A DNA stretch of 5,086 bases from a virus (IMGVR_UViG_3300011982_000023:1-5086); one strand, 5' to 3'; counted from the first letter of the stretch, positions 1-5,086 are shown. Program-made: numbers and translations. Notes: generated by a model not told the origin, from the letters alone.

Positions 1-78
1 AGAAGTAATCACATCACTATTAACAGGAATAGAACCAGTAATATTAGCAGAAGCGCCTAAATTAATTTCAACGCCAGG
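1..78. repeat. Terminal redundancy copy 1: exact 78-nt direct repeat of 5009..5086, the circular-genome assembly overlap
   Basis: Base-by-base identity of 1..78 with 5009..5086 (agaagtaatcacatcactattaacagg...aacgccagg). Confidence 0.97.
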
Positions 79-741
79 ACCTTTTTGCGGCCAAGGAAGA
101 GCTGAAGTAAAATAATCGTGACGTTTACCACGTAACAAAACCTTAGCGCTTTCTTTAGATAGAACAGTCGTTCTGTCATCACCATACATGTCCTTTTCAA
201 CGTCATCGTTAACAGTATGAATAACTTCGCCAGTCGTAACATTTATCGATGGCTGAAAATTTTCATCTCTAAACCAATCATTATAAATACGTCTATAAGC
301 TCTAAAAGGAAGAGCAGAAACAGACAATTTTTTACTTACGCCTGTAGGAAAACCAAAATAGTCAACCAAAGTTCCTGATAACTCATTATTATTATCTGTA
401 TACTCAACCTGAGGAACTAAATACTCCTTAGTTTGCGAACCTTCTAAAAGATTTTCACCATTAAATTCCTTCCAGTGTCTCCAAATAAGACGATTAGGAA
501 CATAAAAGAAAAATACATCTAAATAAGCATTGTCCATAACAGGCGCAACAAGCGTCGCAAGACGCGCAAAAAGAGTCGCCTTACAATTAAAAGTATCACC
601 AGGTAACACCTCATCTAAATAAAACGGAACTAAATAACCTGCATCAAATGTAGTTTTATAACCATGTGTACGATTAAAAACAGAACGCGGAATATTAGTT
701 CTTGGAATCATTGAAAACTTATAATCCATCTTAGTTGACAT
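1..741 (-). CDS. VP1: Major capsid protein VP1, N-terminal 247 codons. The ATG is at 741 and the ORF runs off the window start, continuing in frame at 5008..4052 across the circular junction. Full protein 565 aa.
   Basis: Reverse-complement translation from 741 gives MSTKMDYKFSMIPRTNIPRSVFNRTHGYKTTFDAGYLVPFYLDEVLPGDTFNCKATLFARLATLVAPVMDNAYLDVFFFYVPNRLIW...RAYRRIYNDWFRD, the hallmark gokushovirus VP1 N-terminus. There is no stop down to position 1. 741 nt is exactly 247 codons and the frame matches ORF 4052..5020 after subtracting the 5008-nt genome unit. GAGAGGTG RBS lies 8 nt upstream at 750..757. Confidence 0.95.
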   Translation of the reverse strand, partial: MSTKMDYKFSMIPRTNIPRSVFNRTHGYKTTFDAGYLVPFYLDEVLPGDTFNCKATLFARLATLVAPVMDNAYLDVFFFYVPNRLIWRHWKEFNGENLLEGSQTKEYLVPQVEYTDNNNELSGTLVDYFGFPTGVSKKLSVSALPFRAYRRIYNDWFRDENFQPSINVTTGEVIHTVNDDVEKDMYGDDRTTVLSKESAKVLLRGKRHDYFTSALPWPQKGPGVEINLGASANITGSIPVNSDVITS

Positions 742-763
742 CTAATAAACACCTCTCTAAAAT
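735..763 (+). promoter_or_regulatory. Candidate plus-strand sigma70-like promoter, TTGACA (735..740)-N17-TAAAAT (758..763), pointing away from VP1 into the intergenic region
   Basis: Perfect -35 hexamer, 17-nt spacer and a 5/6 -10. The -35 is the reverse complement of the VP1 start codons ATG-TCA-A, so it may be an incidental by-product of coding sequence. Confidence 0.25.
750..757 (-). promoter_or_regulatory. Shine-Dalgarno GAGAGGTG for VP1
   Basis: 8 nt upstream of the ATG at 741 on the minus strand. Confidence 0.7.
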
Positions 764-821
764 AAAATTAGTTCCGATAATTTAACGTTATCAAACTTAA
801 AAAATTTAACAATCTATGTAT

Positions 822-850
822 AATATAACATAAGTTTAAAAAAATGACAA
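822..850 (-). promoter_or_regulatory. Candidate sigma70-type promoter for VP1. -35 TTGTCA (850..845), 17-nt spacer, extended -10 TGtTATATT (830..822).
   Basis: Read on the minus strand: TTGTCA-N17-TATATT with TG at -15/-14. Predicted TSS near 815, giving a ~74-nt leader to the VP1 ATG at 741. Lies downstream, in the minus-strand sense, of both terminator hairpins. Confidence 0.45.
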
Positions 851-892
851 ATGTCATCAGGAAACTTCGTCATTTTTTTAAGTACGAACAAC

Positions 893-911
893 CACCATTC
901 GTAAAATGGTG
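893..911. other. Stem-loop caccatt-cgtaa-aatggtg, 7-bp stem, immediately 5' of hairpin 915..949
   Basis: Inverted repeat read directly from the sequence. Forms a tandem pair with the 915..949 hairpin. Confidence 0.4.
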
Positions 912-914
912 TCA

Positions 915-956
915 GTCGGCACAGTTACATCAAGTAGTAATGTGCCGACCGTTTTT
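915..956 (+). terminator. GC-rich hairpin. Stem 9 bp gtcggcaca/tgtgccgac (915..923 with 941..949), 17-nt loop, then cg + TTTTT (952..956). Intrinsic-terminator-like on the plus strand, weaker on the minus strand.
   Basis: All nine base pairs are Watson-Crick. The T5 run begins 2 nt after the stem on the plus strand. On the minus strand only a 4-T run (cattttac) follows, 8 nt away. Confidence 0.5.
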
Positions 957-1000
957 CTAATTAACTCAAAACGTCACAAAGTGATGAGTCTAACAATAAC

Positions 1001-1035
1001 AAAAAAACCGTATCAAGAGATACGGCAATTTTTTT
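1001..1035. terminator. Bidirectional rho-independent terminator. A7 (1001..1007), stem ccgtatc/gatacgg (1008..1014 with 1019..1025), loop aaga, then caa + T7 (1029..1035).
   Basis: Perfect 7-bp stem with 4-nt loop, flanked by an A-run on one side and a T-run on the other. On the minus (coding) strand this reads hairpin followed immediately by UUUUUUU, 170 nt downstream of the VP3 stop. Confidence 0.7.
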
Positions 1036-1204
1036 GTCCAACAATATAACCGAGAATAATGAATAAATATATTCTAATTAAATAATTAATTAACAACTAA
1101 TGTATTAACGTAAAATATAATAAACAACGTTAATTACAACAAAAATAAAAAATAATAAATTTATAAAACAACCTAAAGTTTTAAGAGGATTCATAATAAT
1201 CCAT

Positions 1205-1678
1205 TTAAGCATCATCCACTGTAGACGAAGAAGCATCATTATCAACTTCTTTATGTCCTTCAACAGTCCTTGAAACATCTTCCTTCATCCTTTCATTAAC
1301 AAGACCAAGCTTCAAAGCTTCCTCATAATTATTTTTATCAGAAACAAATTCTAACAAATTCAAAGGATTATAATTAAATCTTTCACGAATCTCAACAGGT
1401 AAACTATCAAAATTCTCTCTAGCTCTTACTAAGATATTCTGACTACGCATATAATCAGCAGAATCAAATTCGCTAAAATCGCCAAAAGTAGGGGAAGAAG
1501 ATGCGGATTTACCATTAATAACTGAAAGAGGGTCATAAAAAAAACCAGTATCCTCATATCTATCTACTAAAACATTAATATCTGTATCATCAGCAAATTG
1601 TTGCTGAGTCAAAGAAGGTTCAACAAAAGTAATACCAGGAGATGATACATAACACTCATAACGCTTTCTAATTTCCAA
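1205..1678 (-). CDS. VP3: Internal scaffolding protein VP3 (157 aa, acidic), apparent TTG start
   Basis: PSLTQQQFADDTDINVLVDRYEDTGFF and the C-terminal LPVEIRERFNYNPLNLLEFVSDKNNYEEALKLGL match the two conserved blocks of gokushovirus VP3 (Chlamydia-phage-type scaffold). An in-frame stop lies two codons upstream of the TTG at 1678 and there is no in-frame ATG before residue 77. GAGGTGA RBS at 1686..1692, 7 nt upstream of the TTG. Confidence 0.8.
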   Translation of the reverse strand: MEIRKRYECYVSSPGITFVEPSLTQQQFADDTDINVLVDRYEDTGFFYDPLSVINGKSASSSPTFGDFSEFDSADYMRSQNILVRARENFDSLPVEIRERFNYNPLNLLEFVSDKNNYEEALKLGLVNERMKEDVSRTVEGHKEVDNDASSSTVDDA

Positions 1679-1685
1679 TTGTTAT

Positions 1686-1692
1686 TCACCTC
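1686..1692 (-). promoter_or_regulatory. Shine-Dalgarno GAGGTGA for VP3
   Basis: Minus strand reads TTGAGGTGAATAACAATTG. The spacing supports the TTG start. Confidence 0.6.
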
Positions 1693-1734
1693 AATTCACA
1701 TACTTATACACAAACCGATAAGTATGAATAATTT

Positions 1735-1755
1735 GTGTAGGGGAGACCCCTACAC
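1735..1755. other. GC-rich perfect hairpin between VP4 and VP3: gtgtagggg-aga-cccctacac, 9-bp stem with 3-nt loop
   Basis: The only GC-rich block in the 160-bp VP4-VP3 spacer. All nine pairs are Watson-Crick. On the mRNA strand it is followed by a moderately U-rich stretch (AAAUUAUUCAUACUUAUC). Confidence 0.6.
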
Positions 1756-1838
1756 TAAATTTTCATACTAATGAAAAAAAGGATATACTCTATGAATAAA
1801 AATTACATCACTATCAAATATTAAACTAACACAAAAAA

Positions 1839-3056
1839 TTACTTATTAACTTCAACAAAATCAGAACCATTAGCTAAAAAACGTGGCTGAGACTCTTTAA
1901 TTACTTCCCCGGAATCATTATCAAATTGACCAATACAATATAACTTAAAGTCTTCCGGATGCTGATTAAGAAGAGAAGGATGAGAGGAATCAGTCACTTG
2001 GTCAGAAAACAAACGAAGAGCCATACCATCAGTCTCAAGATAAAACGGAGAACCAAAACTAGAAGCCTTTTCATCAAAAACAGAATACAAACGCAAAACC
2101 ATTTCTACACCACTTTCTTTAGATAACACTTGTCCTTCATACGAACGAACTAATTTATTTAACTTTAATTCCTGAATAGCTTCTTGCATTTTCAAACAAT
2201 CATAATCAACCAACTCCTTTGAATGTTTAACTCTAGACGCTTTTACTTTAGCGTATAACTCACTATCTTCAATCTCTAAAAGTTTGTCATAATACCTAGG
2301 AGGTTTAGTTATGATGTTATTCCTAATAACTATTTTATCATTTGGATAAATAGAAGTCGAATACTTATCATAAAAATCCTTACCTATTCCAGGACGCCTA
2401 GACATTGTGACATACTCAGGTTGAAGACCTTTATAATAATCATCAGCTAAATCACCATTGACCTTTTTACATATGTAACGAGCTACATAAGCACAAGATT
2501 CAAATGTAACATTACCAATGACATTATAACCATAAGGCCATAACTCACTCAATAAATCACTCGTATAATAAGGGAATCCACCTTTAACCTTTAAAAATTT
2601 CTTATCAGGAAAGTCGAAACCAAAAATAATTGCATGATGGTGAGGACGTTTTAACTTAGAGCCGTATTCACCACAATGGAAAAATCTAATTTTACCATAT
2701 CCTGAATGGTCACAATATTTACGTAAACGTTTCATGAATTTAACAAACTCTTTTTTTTCTAAAGAACCATCAGGAGCAATTTTATCAAGTGACTCATTAT
2801 TAAATGTTAATGTTATAAAACAGTTTTTTCTGTGAAGAACCGCTTCGTGACAACATCTGACAGCCCATTGACGACTCCTTTCAAGCCTACAGCCGATACA
2901 CTGACCACACGGGACAGTAACAGGCATATCAGTATAAGCATTAGAACGACTAAAAGTAACAGACCATTTACCAGTTTTTTTGTTAAAACCATTCCTAGAC
3001 CTCCAACCTTGCAAAGGGTGAAAACAAGCCATTAAATCACATCCATAATCAATCAC
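1839..3056 (-). CDS. VP4: Rolling-circle replication initiator VP4 (HUH superfamily I endonuclease). 405 aa from GTG 3056; an alternative in-frame ATG at 3032 gives 397 aa beginning MACFHPL.
   Basis: Zn-finger-like CGQCIGCRLERSRQW near the N-terminus. RCR motif 1 CFITLTF. Motif 2 HUH as RPHHHAIIFG. Motif 3 with paired catalytic tyrosines AYVARYICKKV (compare phiX174 gpA YVAKYVNKK). The GTG at 3056..3054 sits inside the ATG-TGA end of the upstream small basic ORF, a start-stop overlap. Confidence 0.93.
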   Translation of the reverse strand: MIDYGCDLMACFHPLQGWRSRNGFNKKTGKWSVTFSRSNAYTDMPVTVPCGQCIGCRLERSRQWAVRCCHEAVLHRKNCFITLTFNNESLDKIAPDGSLEKKEFVKFMKRLRKYCDHSGYGKIRFFHCGEYGSKLKRPHHHAIIFGFDFPDKKFLKVKGGFPYYTSDLLSELWPYGYNVIGNVTFESCAYVARYICKKVNGDLADDYYKGLQPEYVTMSRRPGIGKDFYDKYSTSIYPNDKIVIRNNIITKPPRYYDKLLEIEDSELYAKVKASRVKHSKELVDYDCLKMQEAIQELKLNKLVRSYEGQVLSKESGVEMVLRLYSVFDEKASSFGSPFYLETDGMALRLFSDQVTDSSHPSLLNQHPEDFKLYCIGQFDNDSGEVIKESQPRFLANGSDFVEVNK

Positions 3057-3172
3057 ATCCTAAAACCACCGCGCATAGGAGTTGCTTGCAAATTCTTTTT
3101 ATGCGTCTTATTTACAGTAGCTCTAAACAACTTACGAGAACCTTTTTTAGACAACTTTTTTCTCTTTTTCAT
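3053..3172 (-). CDS. Small highly basic DNA-binding protein (39 aa; J-protein analogue, VP8/ORF8-like), MKKRKKLSKKGSRKLFRATVNKTHKKNLQATPMRGGFRM
   Basis: Not in the supplied ORF track (too short). Found by translating the reverse complement of 3053..3172: ATG at 3172, TGA at 3053..3055. 15 of 39 residues are K/R and none are acidic. GAGGTGA RBS at 3178..3184, 5 nt upstream, with the VP2 TGA stop embedded in it. Sits between VP2 and the replication gene, as the small DNA-packaging protein does in gokushoviruses. Confidence 0.72.
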   Translation of the reverse strand: MKKRKKLSKKGSRKLFRATVNKTHKKNLQATPMRGGFRM

Positions 3173-3177
3173 TCAAA

Positions 3178-3184
3178 TCACCTC
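3178..3184 (-). promoter_or_regulatory. Shine-Dalgarno GAGGTGA for the small basic protein, containing the VP2 TGA stop
   Basis: Minus strand reads ATGAGGTGATTTGAATG. Confidence 0.65.
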
Positions 3185-4040
3185 ATTTACTATTACTAAG
3201 TCTAAAATCAATACCAAGGCTATTAATAAAACCGCCTAAATCACGAGCAGCACCCTTAAATTGGTCAATAGAAGAAAGAGCATTCTTACCATAATATTTA
3301 GCTGAAAATTCATCCTGCAAAACTTTTGCTTCCTTAGACTTATTATCTGAAACTATTCCTATCTGATTTAATAATTCAGTTTTTTCTTGTTGACTAATCA
3401 AACCAGTACGAGCTACAGACTCAACAGCTTGTTGTGCAAAATAACCTGCTTGAGCCTGATTACGACCAACACCTGAATAAGCTTCAGCCGCAATAGCCGC
3501 ATTCTTTTTAACTTCAGAATCGGTAATACGTTTACTATTCGCAATATCCTGCATAGTTTTCTGAATATTCATTTTCATTAGTGAAATATTTACAGGATAA
3601 GTAGCAGAACGAGCTCTAGACTCTTCAGCATCTTGCATATTCTTAGCTGAAACGGAAGAATTAACTTGAATATCTGAATTAGTTTTAGCAATATCAGCAT
3701 CTAATTTAGATAAAGTCTTTTCTCCAATTAACAACTGTTGCTTAGCTAACATACGTTGTGTGCGAGCGTTATAAACTCCTGAACCTGCTTCCATCATTCC
3801 AGCAGCAGGATTCTGCTGCATAGCACCAAAACCGACAGGAGTTGAAGCTCCTTGATTAGCTGAAAGAATAGGATTAAGTCCTGCGTTACGTAAATCTTGT
3901 ACTTCCCTTGTATGGGAAGTAGAAGACATACGCTCTTGAAAATCTCTATTAGCTTGAGCTTCCTTGCGTGCAGAATGATTAGAAACTATACCTCCTAAAA
4001 GGGAAGGAACACCACCTATAAGAGAAGAAAGAAAAGACAT
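3183..4040 (-). CDS. VP2: Minor capsid / DNA pilot-like protein VP2 (285 aa)
   Basis: N-terminus MSFLSSLIGGVPSLLGGIVSNHSARKEAQANRDFQERMSSTSHTREVQDLRNAGLNPILS matches the conserved gokushovirus VP2 motif (QERMS..HQREV.DL..AGLNP.L), followed by Gly/Ala/Gln-rich low-complexity and coiled-coil-like segments. Position immediately downstream of VP1. AGAGGTG RBS at 4046..4052 overlaps the VP1 TAA stop. Confidence 0.85.
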   Translation of the reverse strand: MSFLSSLIGGVPSLLGGIVSNHSARKEAQANRDFQERMSSTSHTREVQDLRNAGLNPILSANQGASTPVGFGAMQQNPAAGMMEAGSGVYNARTQRMLAKQQLLIGEKTLSKLDADIAKTNSDIQVNSSVSAKNMQDAEESRARSATYPVNISLMKMNIQKTMQDIANSKRITDSEVKKNAAIAAEAYSGVGRNQAQAGYFAQQAVESVARTGLISQQEKTELLNQIGIVSDNKSKEAKVLQDEFSAKYYGKNALSSIDQFKGAARDLGGFINSLGIDFRLSNSK

Positions 4041-4045
4041 TTAAT

Positions 4046-4052
4046 CACCTCT
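4046..4052 (-). promoter_or_regulatory. Shine-Dalgarno AGAGGTG for VP2, overlapping the VP1 TAA stop
   Basis: Minus strand reads TAAGAGGTGATTAAATG. Confidence 0.7.
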
Positions 4053-5086
4053 TAGAAATGAGAAACAAGACCTGGAACAGAATAAACAGGCATAGGACGC
4101 GCACAACGAAGAGATATATAACTATCTAATATAAACTGAGGTTCAGACTGAACAGCAACAGCTCGTTTAACACCATCATATGAAGCTTTATCCTCAATAA
4201 ATTCATGATTCAATTGAGGTAAATTATCAAACTTTTGAGCAAAATGCCAAACATCTAAAGACTGTGGATAAGTAGAACGAAGTTTTCCTGTAATTACAGA
4301 AGGATGATATCTATACTCAGCATATCTTTCCTGATATCCAAATATCTTGTTATCTTCCTCAGTTCCCTGAGCATAAATTTCCTTATTTAAAATAGCTTGT
4401 TCACCAAGATGAGCAAAGTCTGGCCAGTAATATTCAACGCGTGTCTTACGTGACCACATTCTGTTAATCCCTTGTTGATAAGACAAATCAGTACGAATAT
4501 TAACCAATCCAATTACAATACCATGTTCGGTAAATGATTTAGTAAAACCAGTACCTTTTGTGCCAACAATACCAAATGCAGACAAATTACCTTGCGGGGA
4601 ATCCTTAGAAGTCTCAGAATTTTGAACTACTGTAGAAATATTAACAGGAGTTGAAGAACCGCCAAGATACTCAGAACGCTGCAAACGAGAATCAGGGGAA
4701 ACAACACCGAAATGACTCCTAACAATCTCGGTATATCGTGTTCCGCCTCTTGCATCTCTTTCATAGAATCGTTGTAACTGAAATGCTTGTCGCAAATTAT
4801 TAATAGTAATAGCGGAAGCAGAAGACAAATCAGCTTGTAAACCTGAAACAGGTAAATTAAAAGAATTATTTTTCAAATAGCCAAGAGTATTATTATTAGG
4901 AAGAGAAATTCCATAACCATCAAAAAAAACCTGACGTTCTCCATCTTTAGATCCTGAATAACTAGCTTTAAACTTCGAATAACGATGACCATTATCAGTA
5001 ACAAAAGAAGAAGTAATCACATCACTATTAACAGGAATAGAACCAGTAATATTAGCAGAAGCGCCTAAATTAATTTCAACGCCAGG
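4052..5086 (-). CDS. VP1: Major capsid protein VP1, C-terminal portion (318 aa plus TAA stop). 5009..5086 duplicates 1..78. The 'M' at 5020 in the ORF track is an internal GTG Val codon, not a start.
   Basis: ORF-track protein ...ITSSFVTDNGHRYSKF... continues the translation of 1..60 (...PVNSDVITS) exactly. 5008-4052+1 = 957 nt = 319 codons including stop. Long beta-rich capsid-type sequence, size typical of gokushovirus F-like capsid. Confidence 0.93.
   Translation of the reverse strand, partial: PGVEINLGASANITGSIPVNSDVITSSFVTDNGHRYSKFKASYSGSKDGERQVFFDGYGISLPNNNTLGYLKNNSFNLPVSGLQADLSSASAITINNLRQAFQLQRFYERDARGGTRYTEIVRSHFGVVSPDSRLQRSEYLGGSSTPVNISTVVQNSETSKDSPQGNLSAFGIVGTKGTGFTKSFTEHGIVIGLVNIRTDLSYQQGINRMWSRKTRVEYYWPDFAHLGEQAILNKEIYAQGTEEDNKIFGYQERYAEYRYHPSVITGKLRSTYPQSLDVWHFAQKFDNLPQLNHEFIEDKASYDGVKRAVAVQSEPQFILDSYISLRCARPMPVYSVPGLVSHF
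5009..5086. repeat. Terminal redundancy copy 2. Genome unit = 5008 nt.
   Basis: Identical to 1..78. VP1 reading frame is continuous across the junction only if the molecule is circular. Confidence 0.97.

Follow-up and report, generated by a model that had tools for sequence, protein, structure and literature searches.

Results

A circular gokushovirus genome

The stretch of DNA described here, IMGVR_UViG_3300011982_000023:1-5086 (5,086 nucleotides, or nt; hereafter the window), carries the genes of a gokushovirus of the family Microviridae and, upstream of the capsid gene, a short motif that matches a chromosomal site beside a tyrosine recombinase gene in Veillonellaceae. The displayed strand is the complement of the coding (viral) strand and is cut inside the capsid gene, and all long open reading frames (ORFs) and called genes lie on the minus strand. 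Along the coding strand the order is VP1, VP2, a J-like peptide, Rep fused to VP5, VP3, a small membrane peptide, and a 463-nt control region (Table 1); noncoding DNA comes to 463 + 160 nt. The plus strand of the window is A-rich, and the coding strand, which in Microviridae is the packaged strand, is therefore T-rich (37% T).

We regard it as virtually certain that the window represents a complete circular genome of 5008 nt. Positions 1-78 are identical to 5009-5086, and since a comparison of the window's ends gave 78 nt as the longest overlap, the repeat unit is 5008 nt. The initial annotation had proposed this circle and, with it, a capsid gene split by the window edge. Both proposals hold: 1-741 and 4052-5008 join in frame into 565 amino acids (aa) that start MSTKMDYKF, read PVNSDVITS/SFVTDNG across the junction, and run to the stop at 4052, with none of the stops or frameshifts for which that annotation had suggested looking. 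A profile search of the joined protein, also its suggestion, covered Pfam Phage_F from end to end (1-501/501, E 1.1e-171). Its remark on the ORF list was accurate as well: the list holds the GTG-started 322-aa ORF at 4052-5020 alone and omits the part that runs off position 1.

Independent assemblies close the same circle. An exact look-up of VP2 returned seven public contigs. All come from ENA assemblies, and the three that belong to PRJNA230363 carry the label human oral metagenome. Four of the seven are full length, and after trimming all four equal the circle of the window, with 0 mismatches and four different breakpoints. Two are MEGAHIT k127 contigs of 5135 nt each (5008 + 127; end overlap, 127 nt) and two are SPAdes contigs of 5063 nt each (5008 + 55; end overlap, 55 nt), the end overlap in these four fetched contigs being the assembler k-mer (127, 55). 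The nearest GenBank record, PV594036.1 (Microviridae sp. isolate micro-30157, from a human nasopharyngeal swab, China; 5000 nt, deposited as partial), is broken in an intergenic region and reads straight through the junction of the window. The genome is collinear with that record and with the circular OR148998.1 (Microvirus D_HF4_298, from human saliva, USA; 4861 nt). Five assembly breakpoints for one unit leave little room for a linear molecule.

PV594036.1 is 94% identical to the window in nucleotide sequence over 99% of the circle, with Rep at 98.5% and VP1 at 96% aa identity. It shares the gene order and the Rep-VP5 fusion, and its att motif and origin hairpin, described below, are identical; it differs in its intergenic cut, in having two genes annotated, and in the C terminus of the small membrane ORF. 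The usual species line is 95% identity, and this record, at ~94%, lies near it. OR148998.1 is more distant (70% nt; Rep, 66% aa; VP1, 79% aa, measured on its ~97.5%-identical prophage copy). It has the same gene order, small membrane ORF, origin hairpin, att motif upstream of VP1, and fused Rep-VP5 (408 aa); it differs in its site spacer, ATGGATG, and in having integrated copies in Dialister-like chromosomes.

The assignment to the gokushovirus type made in the initial annotation agrees with family searches of every gene and with the independent assemblies. An F-type capsid, VP2, VP3, Rep (VP4), and VP5 were found on a small circle within the 4-6 kb of the Gokushovirinae. The best solved relative of VP1 is the gokushovirus capsid PDB 8DES (E 1.9e-185 over the full length), 9CGM matches at E 3.4e-98, and no phiX174-group F chain appeared among solved structures at E <= 0.01. 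A Pfam search of all other ORFs of >= 45 aa in the circle gave no match, and the genome is therefore without a major spike protein G, an external scaffolding protein D, or an E-type lysis protein. Every main gene is under purifying selection relative to PV594036 (ratio of nonsynonymous to synonymous change, pN/pS, 0-0.14). Each hallmark gene previously listed (VP1, VP2, J-like, Rep, and scaffold) was found once; VP5, being fused to Rep, had been overlooked, as had the integration-site mimic, the origin-like hairpin, and the small membrane ORF.

An integration-site mimic and integrated relatives

The motif upstream of VP1 has a 21-nt core, GATAACGTTAAATTATCGGAA (792 to 772), that ends 30 nt before the VP1 ATG, and the extended motif ends 22 nt before it. 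It occurs once in the window, with 0 occurrences expected by chance. The core is identical at 21/21 nt, spacer CGTTAAA included, to the site TTCCGATAACGTTAAATTATCGGAA of Anaeroglobus geminatus F0357, which we take to be a human oral member of the Veillonellaceae; there the site lies 42 nt from the start of a recombinase gene. The host site in Veillonellaceae is a 9-7-9 palindrome, TTCCGATAA-N7-TTATCGGAA, beside a tyrosine recombinase gene. A search of all ORFs of the circle against Pfam and PHROGs found no recombinase domain. Since the phage thus has no integrase of its own, it most likely borrows the recombinase of the host.

Relatives of the window genome are integrated at such sites. A 105-kb contig (L013), found through a Rep cluster at 66% identity, holds a copy ~97.6% identical to the whole of the free OR148998.1. 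This prophage sits between a tyrosine recombinase gene and housekeeping genes; its left boundary is TTCCGATAATTTAATGTTATCGGAA and its right boundary GATAAATGGATGTTATCGGAA, the two sites (at 7274 and 12132) lying 4858 nt apart. A 637-kb contig carries a second OR148998-like prophage with the same 4858-nt spacing between sites. Both prophage junctions are seen, within the motif, in L013 and in contig L263, and the flanks of L013 show synteny with sites that stand uninterrupted in Dialister sp. Marseille-QA0723, in Allisonella, and in a Veillonellaceae metagenome-assembled genome (MAG). We considered the right flank in Dialister sp. Marseille-QA0723 as a phage remnant and dropped the idea, as the same flank is native to the right of another prophage.

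Closer to the window is a contig (L259) from a metagenome scan for the expected left junction. It reads from a recombinase fragment through ATTAG-TTCCGATAACGTTAAATTATCGGAA-CTAATTTTATTTTAGAGAGGTG (328-360), which holds a perfect copy of the site, into a phage that is 91.7% identical in nucleotide sequence to the window (VP1, 95.8% aa); the left junction alone is present. The same scan returned a further gokushovirus lineage at the TTTAATG site, and a third phage lineage (L015 and L016) matches the site of a Veillonellaceae MAG at 29/30 positions. With the junctions of L013, L259, and L263 lying in the motif, integration is established for relatives, a close one among them, and we infer that the window genome, too, probably integrates through its host-site mimic.

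The exact att motif of the window with its flank is absent from IMG/VR, and an alignment scan of representative bacterial genomes for VP1 found no relative, the peptide patterns chosen for it being too specific.

Two side observations concern the same sites. In a third integrated lineage (L258, 1938-2000; L260, reverse complement, 74-130), an extra half-site, ATGTTATCGGAAGTTAT, stands immediately after the left junction. Counting lineages, at least three or four of gokushoviruses are integrated at, or carry mimics of, TTCCGATAA-N7-TTATCGGAA in Veillonellaceae-like chromosomes.

The host and its recombinase

Scanning one genome per species for TTCCGATAA-N7-TTATCGGAA gave at least 120 loci. Among the 120 listed, 69 have a homologue of the L013 recombinase, mostly within ~100 nt of the site. 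The recombinase has Phage_integrase and SAM-like domains, and among solved structures it is closest to archaeal XerA, to XerD, and, over the full length, to Cre. Its scores are far below the curated cutoffs for XerC, XerD, XerS, and XerA (54-60 bits versus 220-335, with XerC/XerD at 330-335). The host of L013 was placed by synteny and by ~70% identity to Dialister and Allisonella. Together with the identity to the Anaeroglobus site, this makes the Veillonellaceae the likely host family of the window genome.

The distribution of the palindrome is wider than this family. With an adjacent recombinase homologue, it occurs among the listed loci in ~40 Pelagibacterales genomes, and the palindrome is likewise present in Myxococcales, Bacteroidota, Paenibacillus, and a Chlamydiae MAG. 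In two complete Pelagibacter chromosomes the site stands at 47.6% (CP159818.1, at 660,205 of 1,385,505) and 46.6% (CP159812.1, at 649,044 of 1,394,121) of the sequence; Pelagibacter has been reported to be without dif/Xer (Carnoy and Roten 2009, PMC2731167). In four loci of Veillonella spp. and one of Dialister, a perfect palindrome lies 2.1-2.4 kb from the recombinase gene, and another small element may be inserted between the two.

A candidate replication origin

The control region contains a stem-loop (951 to 908) with a 15-pair stem (DNA fold, -12.8 kcal/mol; z, -4.9) and the heptamer ACTTGAT in its loop at 935-929. The same loop and flank, on different stems, are present in six other genomes examined. 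More widely, a stem-loop with ACTTGATGT in the loop, followed by TGACACC, occurs in at least 119 microvirus contigs of IMG/VR (2-9 kb). A VP1 homologue is encoded by each of the 119 listed, and of 127 occurrences of the motif, 124 share the strand of VP1. For a 10-pair stem in 111 distinct sequences, 88% of cells are paired, versus 25-40% when the partner is slid. Five pairs show compensatory changes on both sides (144 cells), and 0/500 shuffles reach the observed score. The search pattern itself imposed three parts of this alignment (the loop, the flank, and the top three pairs of the 3' arm) and left the remaining stem free.

The phiX174 record (NC_001422.1, rep_origin at 4306) annotates the viral-strand origin at the A of AACTTG/ATATT. 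Because that origin falls in the same heptamer, we propose a nick at ACTTG/AT, which in the window would lie between G931 and A930. Against the 30-nt phiX174 origin, 17/30 positions match in register, among them 8 of the initial 9 and GAC at 25-27. The two differ in setting: the phiX174 origin is within gene A and has no prominent hairpin, whereas the candidate in the window is in the loop of an intergenic stem-loop. As the stem covaries across the 111 sequences, the hairpin is a candidate replication origin, and we lean towards its being that of the viral strand. A second ACTTGAT, inside Rep, was dismissed as chance; it is not conserved in OR148998 and has no hairpin. A literature search found no description of the hairpin motif in Microviridae, which is not proof that it is undescribed.

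A Rep-VP5 fusion

In the window, VP5 is fused in frame to Rep, a rare and, for Gokushovirinae, atypical arrangement. The frame is open from a GTG at 3056 (405 aa). Within this ORF, Pfam finds REP_ORF2-G2P at residues 78-198 and Phage_ORF5 at residues 323-398 (E 5e-23), and PHROGs finds phrog_942 (E 9e-120) and phrog_1670. The Rep part has the motifs FITLTF, HHHAIIF (HUH), and YVARYICKK, the last with two tyrosines in YxxxY spacing. The same fusion is present in PV594036, OR148998, and two further genomes (P0003 and P0004). Relatives of the ordinary kind encode VP4 and VP5 as two genes; in MG945491 and MG945479 the ATG of VP5 comes directly after the stop of VP4 and in the same frame, and in the window a short linker, VLSKESGVE, stands in place of the stop. 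Of 8000 Rep clusters scored, the best 120 include four with both domains (that of the window, that of OR148998, and two at 55% identity), all in genomes of identical gene order. The VP5 domain differs from that of PV594036 by 3 synonymous and 0 nonsynonymous changes; the fusion is genuine and subject to selection. Upstream of the internal ATG at 2102 stands GTGGTG, as far from this codon as the GAGGTGA ribosome-binding sites of the genome are from their start codons, and the GGTG core before the internal Met is kept in the window and OR148998. With this core at ribosome-binding distance, VP5 may also be translated separately.

Other genes and noncoding features

The remaining features of the window are collected in Table 1. 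VP2 has no Pfam match, and its pN/pS relative to PV594036 is 0.04. The J-like peptide has 15 basic residues (10 K and 5 R) and 0 acidic ones; its gene is called in all independent contigs, and 40-aa genes occupy the equivalent position in relatives. Its size, position, and charge fit the earlier label of J-like and suggest a DNA-binding counterpart of J/VP8; that label has no other basis, its PHROG match having no known function. Spanning the J-like stop and the Rep start, GGATGTGATT occurs twice on the coding strand (3035-3044 and 3051-3060), 16 nt apart.

The peptide of the small ORF, which has no match in PHROGs or Pfam, contains LKWIIMNPLK and, after it, a single hydrophobic helix. At the equivalent place, PV594036, OR148998 (annotated as hypothetical), and L016 have ORFs that combine an NPL(K/N) motif with a transmembrane helix, and L014 has a hydrophobic ORF that lacks the NPL motif. 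We regard the product of the small ORF as a candidate membrane or lysis peptide. To our knowledge, no lysis gene is known in Gokushovirinae.

An Rfam search of the window gave no match. Two further hairpins stand out by their folds. The one at 1721-1769 (DNA fold, -17.1 kcal/mol; z, -6.8) might be a terminator or a complementary-strand origin, both of which are guesses. The one at 999-1037 (-12.7 kcal/mol; z, -7.3) has a counterpart at the equivalent position in OR148998 and L013. Its tip is CTCTTGAT in both the window and OR148998 (L013, ~11900), on stems that differ, and resembles the CTTGAT of the origin loop. The number of sites in a sigma-70 promoter scan of the window was not above shuffle expectation, and promoters are therefore listed as candidates only.

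Table 1. Features of the window, in coordinates of the displayed strand
Feature	Coordinates	Strand	Basis or remark
Terminal redundancy	1..78 (= 5009..5086)		Assembly overlap of circular molecule, unit 5008 nt
VP1 major capsid, N-terminal 247 codons	1..741, ATG at 741, continues at 5008	-	Phage_F, phrog_514, PDB 8DES
Integration-site mimic (attP)	764..792	-	GATAA-CGTTAAA-TTATCGGAA, then CTAATTTT; single match; junctions of relatives
Promoter-like site (candidate)	822..850	-	TTGTCA-17-TATATT with TG extension, upstream of VP1
Candidate viral-strand origin stem-loop	908..951	-	Stem CGGTCGGCACATTAC / GTAA-C-TGTGCCGACTG, loop TACTTGAT, 3' flank TGACACC
Intrinsic-terminator-like hairpin	999..1037	-	A run and T run flanks; 3' of VP3 and small ORF
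Small ORF, 57 aa (29 aa from inner ATG at 1194)	1105..1278	-	Overlaps VP3 end
VP3 internal scaffolding protein, 157 aa	1205..1678	-	Chlamy_scaf E 1.2e-29, phrog_1642; TTG start after GAGGTGA
Long hairpin, 22 pairs, GC-rich tip	1721..1769	-	GTGTAGGGG-TCT-CCCCTACAC; inverted repeat in the 160-nt Rep-VP5/VP3 gap
Rep (VP4) fused in frame to VP5, 397 aa	1839..3032, ATG at 3032	-	REP_ORF2-G2P, Phage_ORF5, PHROGs
VP5 (Phage_ORF5) domain	1839..2102, internal ATG at 2102	-	Pfam
J/VP8-like small basic peptide, 39 aa	3053..3172	-	phrog_10695 E 4.8e-14 (function unknown)
VP2 DNA pilot protein, 285 aa	3183..4040	-	Pilot-protein PHROG families, best E 6.9e-25
VP1 major capsid, C-terminal 318 codons and stop	4052..5008	-	5009-5086 repeats codons counted in 1-78

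Discussion

Taken as a whole, we consider it highly probable that the window is a complete gokushovirus circle from the human mouth or upper airway that replicates through nicking of its origin by Rep, integrates by way of a host recombinase, and has a host in the Veillonellaceae. In the sequence of events that we propose, Rep, an HUH protein with two tyrosines, would nick the viral strand at ACTTG/AT in the hairpin loop of the control region and so drive rolling-circle replication. The phage, having no integrase, would borrow the Cre/XerA-like recombinase of the host to insert at the 9-7-9 site mimic upstream of VP1. The likely host would be an oral member of the Veillonellaceae, of Anaeroglobus or the Dialister group.

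Several points weigh against this picture. The proof of circularity is at the level of assemblies rather than mapped reads, and the single-stranded state of the virion DNA is taken from family membership. On the integration side, the site in the window has a degenerate left arm (TTTGATAA versus TTCCGATAA), the recombinase gene in L263 is not within 2.6 kb of the site, and a search for an integrated copy of the exact genome found none, the contigs with its exact VP2 all being <= 5.1 kb. The host call rests on 21-25 nt of identity together with the relatives, and a search of the 120 listed palindrome loci for VP1 and Rep found neither, so these species representatives have no prophage there. As for the origin, the alignment that shows covariation was selected by its loop and 3' flank, and the hairpin could instead serve complementary-strand priming or packaging. 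Finally, Rep-VP5 may act as a fusion, as two proteins, or as both.

The closest precedent for such a lifestyle is found in enterobacteria, where gokushovirus prophages are flanked by a host site and a phage site (Kirchberger and Ochman 2020, PMC7062461). Like Enterogokushovirus EC6098 and these dif-flanked prophages, the window genome combines a gokushovirus capsid and the lack of an integrase with a noncoding mimic of the host site (PMC7062461). The enterobacterial phages use a canonical 28-bp dif (11-6-11) and need XerC and XerD (PMC7062461), whereas the window has a 9-7-9 palindrome that in Negativicutes lies by a single Cre/XerA-like recombinase gene, and its Rep and VP5 are fused. To judge by these features, the window genome would work like a Xer-exploiting element (IMEX) but would not be a XerCD-dif element. 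The enterobacterial study found no gokushovirus prophages in bacteria beyond Enterobacteria (PMC7062461), and a later survey reported Microviridae-like regions in Negativicutes, with no mechanism given (PMC9753089).

The host system also recalls XerS/difSL, XerH/difH, XerA, and XerL with LME-1 (PMC2731167, PMC9765430), in which a single recombinase acts on a palindromic, AT-rich site that often lies near the recombinase gene and is mimicked on a mobile element. The recombinase described here differs in that curated models place it in none of the XerS-, XerH-, XerA-, or XerL-type systems, and a role in dimer resolution would be putative.

This raises the question of what the host site is. One possibility is that the palindrome next to the recombinase gene is the operator or target of a resident mobile-element or regulatory recombinase, used by the phages as an ordinary secondary att site rather than being a dimer-resolution site. 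We hold this to be plausible, at somewhat less than an even chance. In its favor, the recombinase score of 60 bits is remote from the cutoffs of 220-335 for XerC, XerD, XerS, and XerA, the site lies in the promoter region of the recombinase gene, and its position on the chromosome varies from 11 to 71% among complete genomes. It fits less well with the synteny of recombinase, site, and neighbor conserved in Dialister-like genomes, with the retention of the gene-site pair across phyla, and with the positions of 46.6% and 47.6% in two complete Pelagibacter chromosomes. Were it true, the host system would be renamed and the mechanism of phage integration would be unchanged. The alternative, that recombinase and palindrome form an undescribed single-recombinase chromosomal system in Veillonellaceae, other Negativicutes, Pelagibacterales, Myxococcales, Bacteroidota, and others, exploited by several gokushovirus lineages, we put forward tentatively and with some doubt. 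The conserved synteny and the ~47% position in the two Pelagibacter chromosomes are only hints that such a system may serve dimer resolution.

It is unlikely that the phage is strictly lytic, its 21-nt motif being a promoter or operator element or a relic and the genome never integrating. The exact sequence has been found as free circles only, the left arm of the site is imperfect, and most gokushoviruses have been reported to be without dif motifs and their integration to be transient (PMC7062461). Nonetheless, the chromosome junction of a relative at 92% identity falls exactly within the motif and shares its 7-nt spacer, the site flanks two further lineages, and the motif was found once where 0 were expected. 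That the window is a linear piece (part of a tandem concatemer, a prophage bounded by direct repeats, or an assembler artifact duplicating 78 nt) is scarcely credible: end repeats by themselves are no proof of circularity, and it was assemblies, not reads, that were examined, yet five assemblies from different assemblers break the 5008-nt unit at five places, closing the junction restores a full-length capsid, the window is without host DNA, and the att repeats of the integrated relatives are upstream of VP1 rather than within it.

As a free circle that probably also integrates, the window genome belongs to a known group and is ordinary within it; contigs identical to it were public already and, with a relative at 94% nt identity in GenBank, it is an addition to a known kind. 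Beside the tens of thousands of microvirus genomes that exist, the genome as such contributes little. What it offers is a well-annotated reference for a clade of gokushoviruses from the human mouth and airway; its added interest, which is moderate, comes from the Rep-VP5 fusion, the origin-like hairpin, the site mimic, and the inferred host. It gives this clade a probable host family, the Veillonellaceae, and a probable mechanism of lysogeny distinct from the XerCD-dif route of E. coli, marks a candidate replication origin common to many gokushovirus-like genomes, and shows a rare Rep-VP5 fusion. If the undescribed single-recombinase system is real, oral gokushoviruses would have a host and a route to lysogeny outside Enterobacteria, and if the host site turns out to be one at which dimers are resolved, a new Xer-type system would have come to light through the phage, as happened in Legionella with LME-1.

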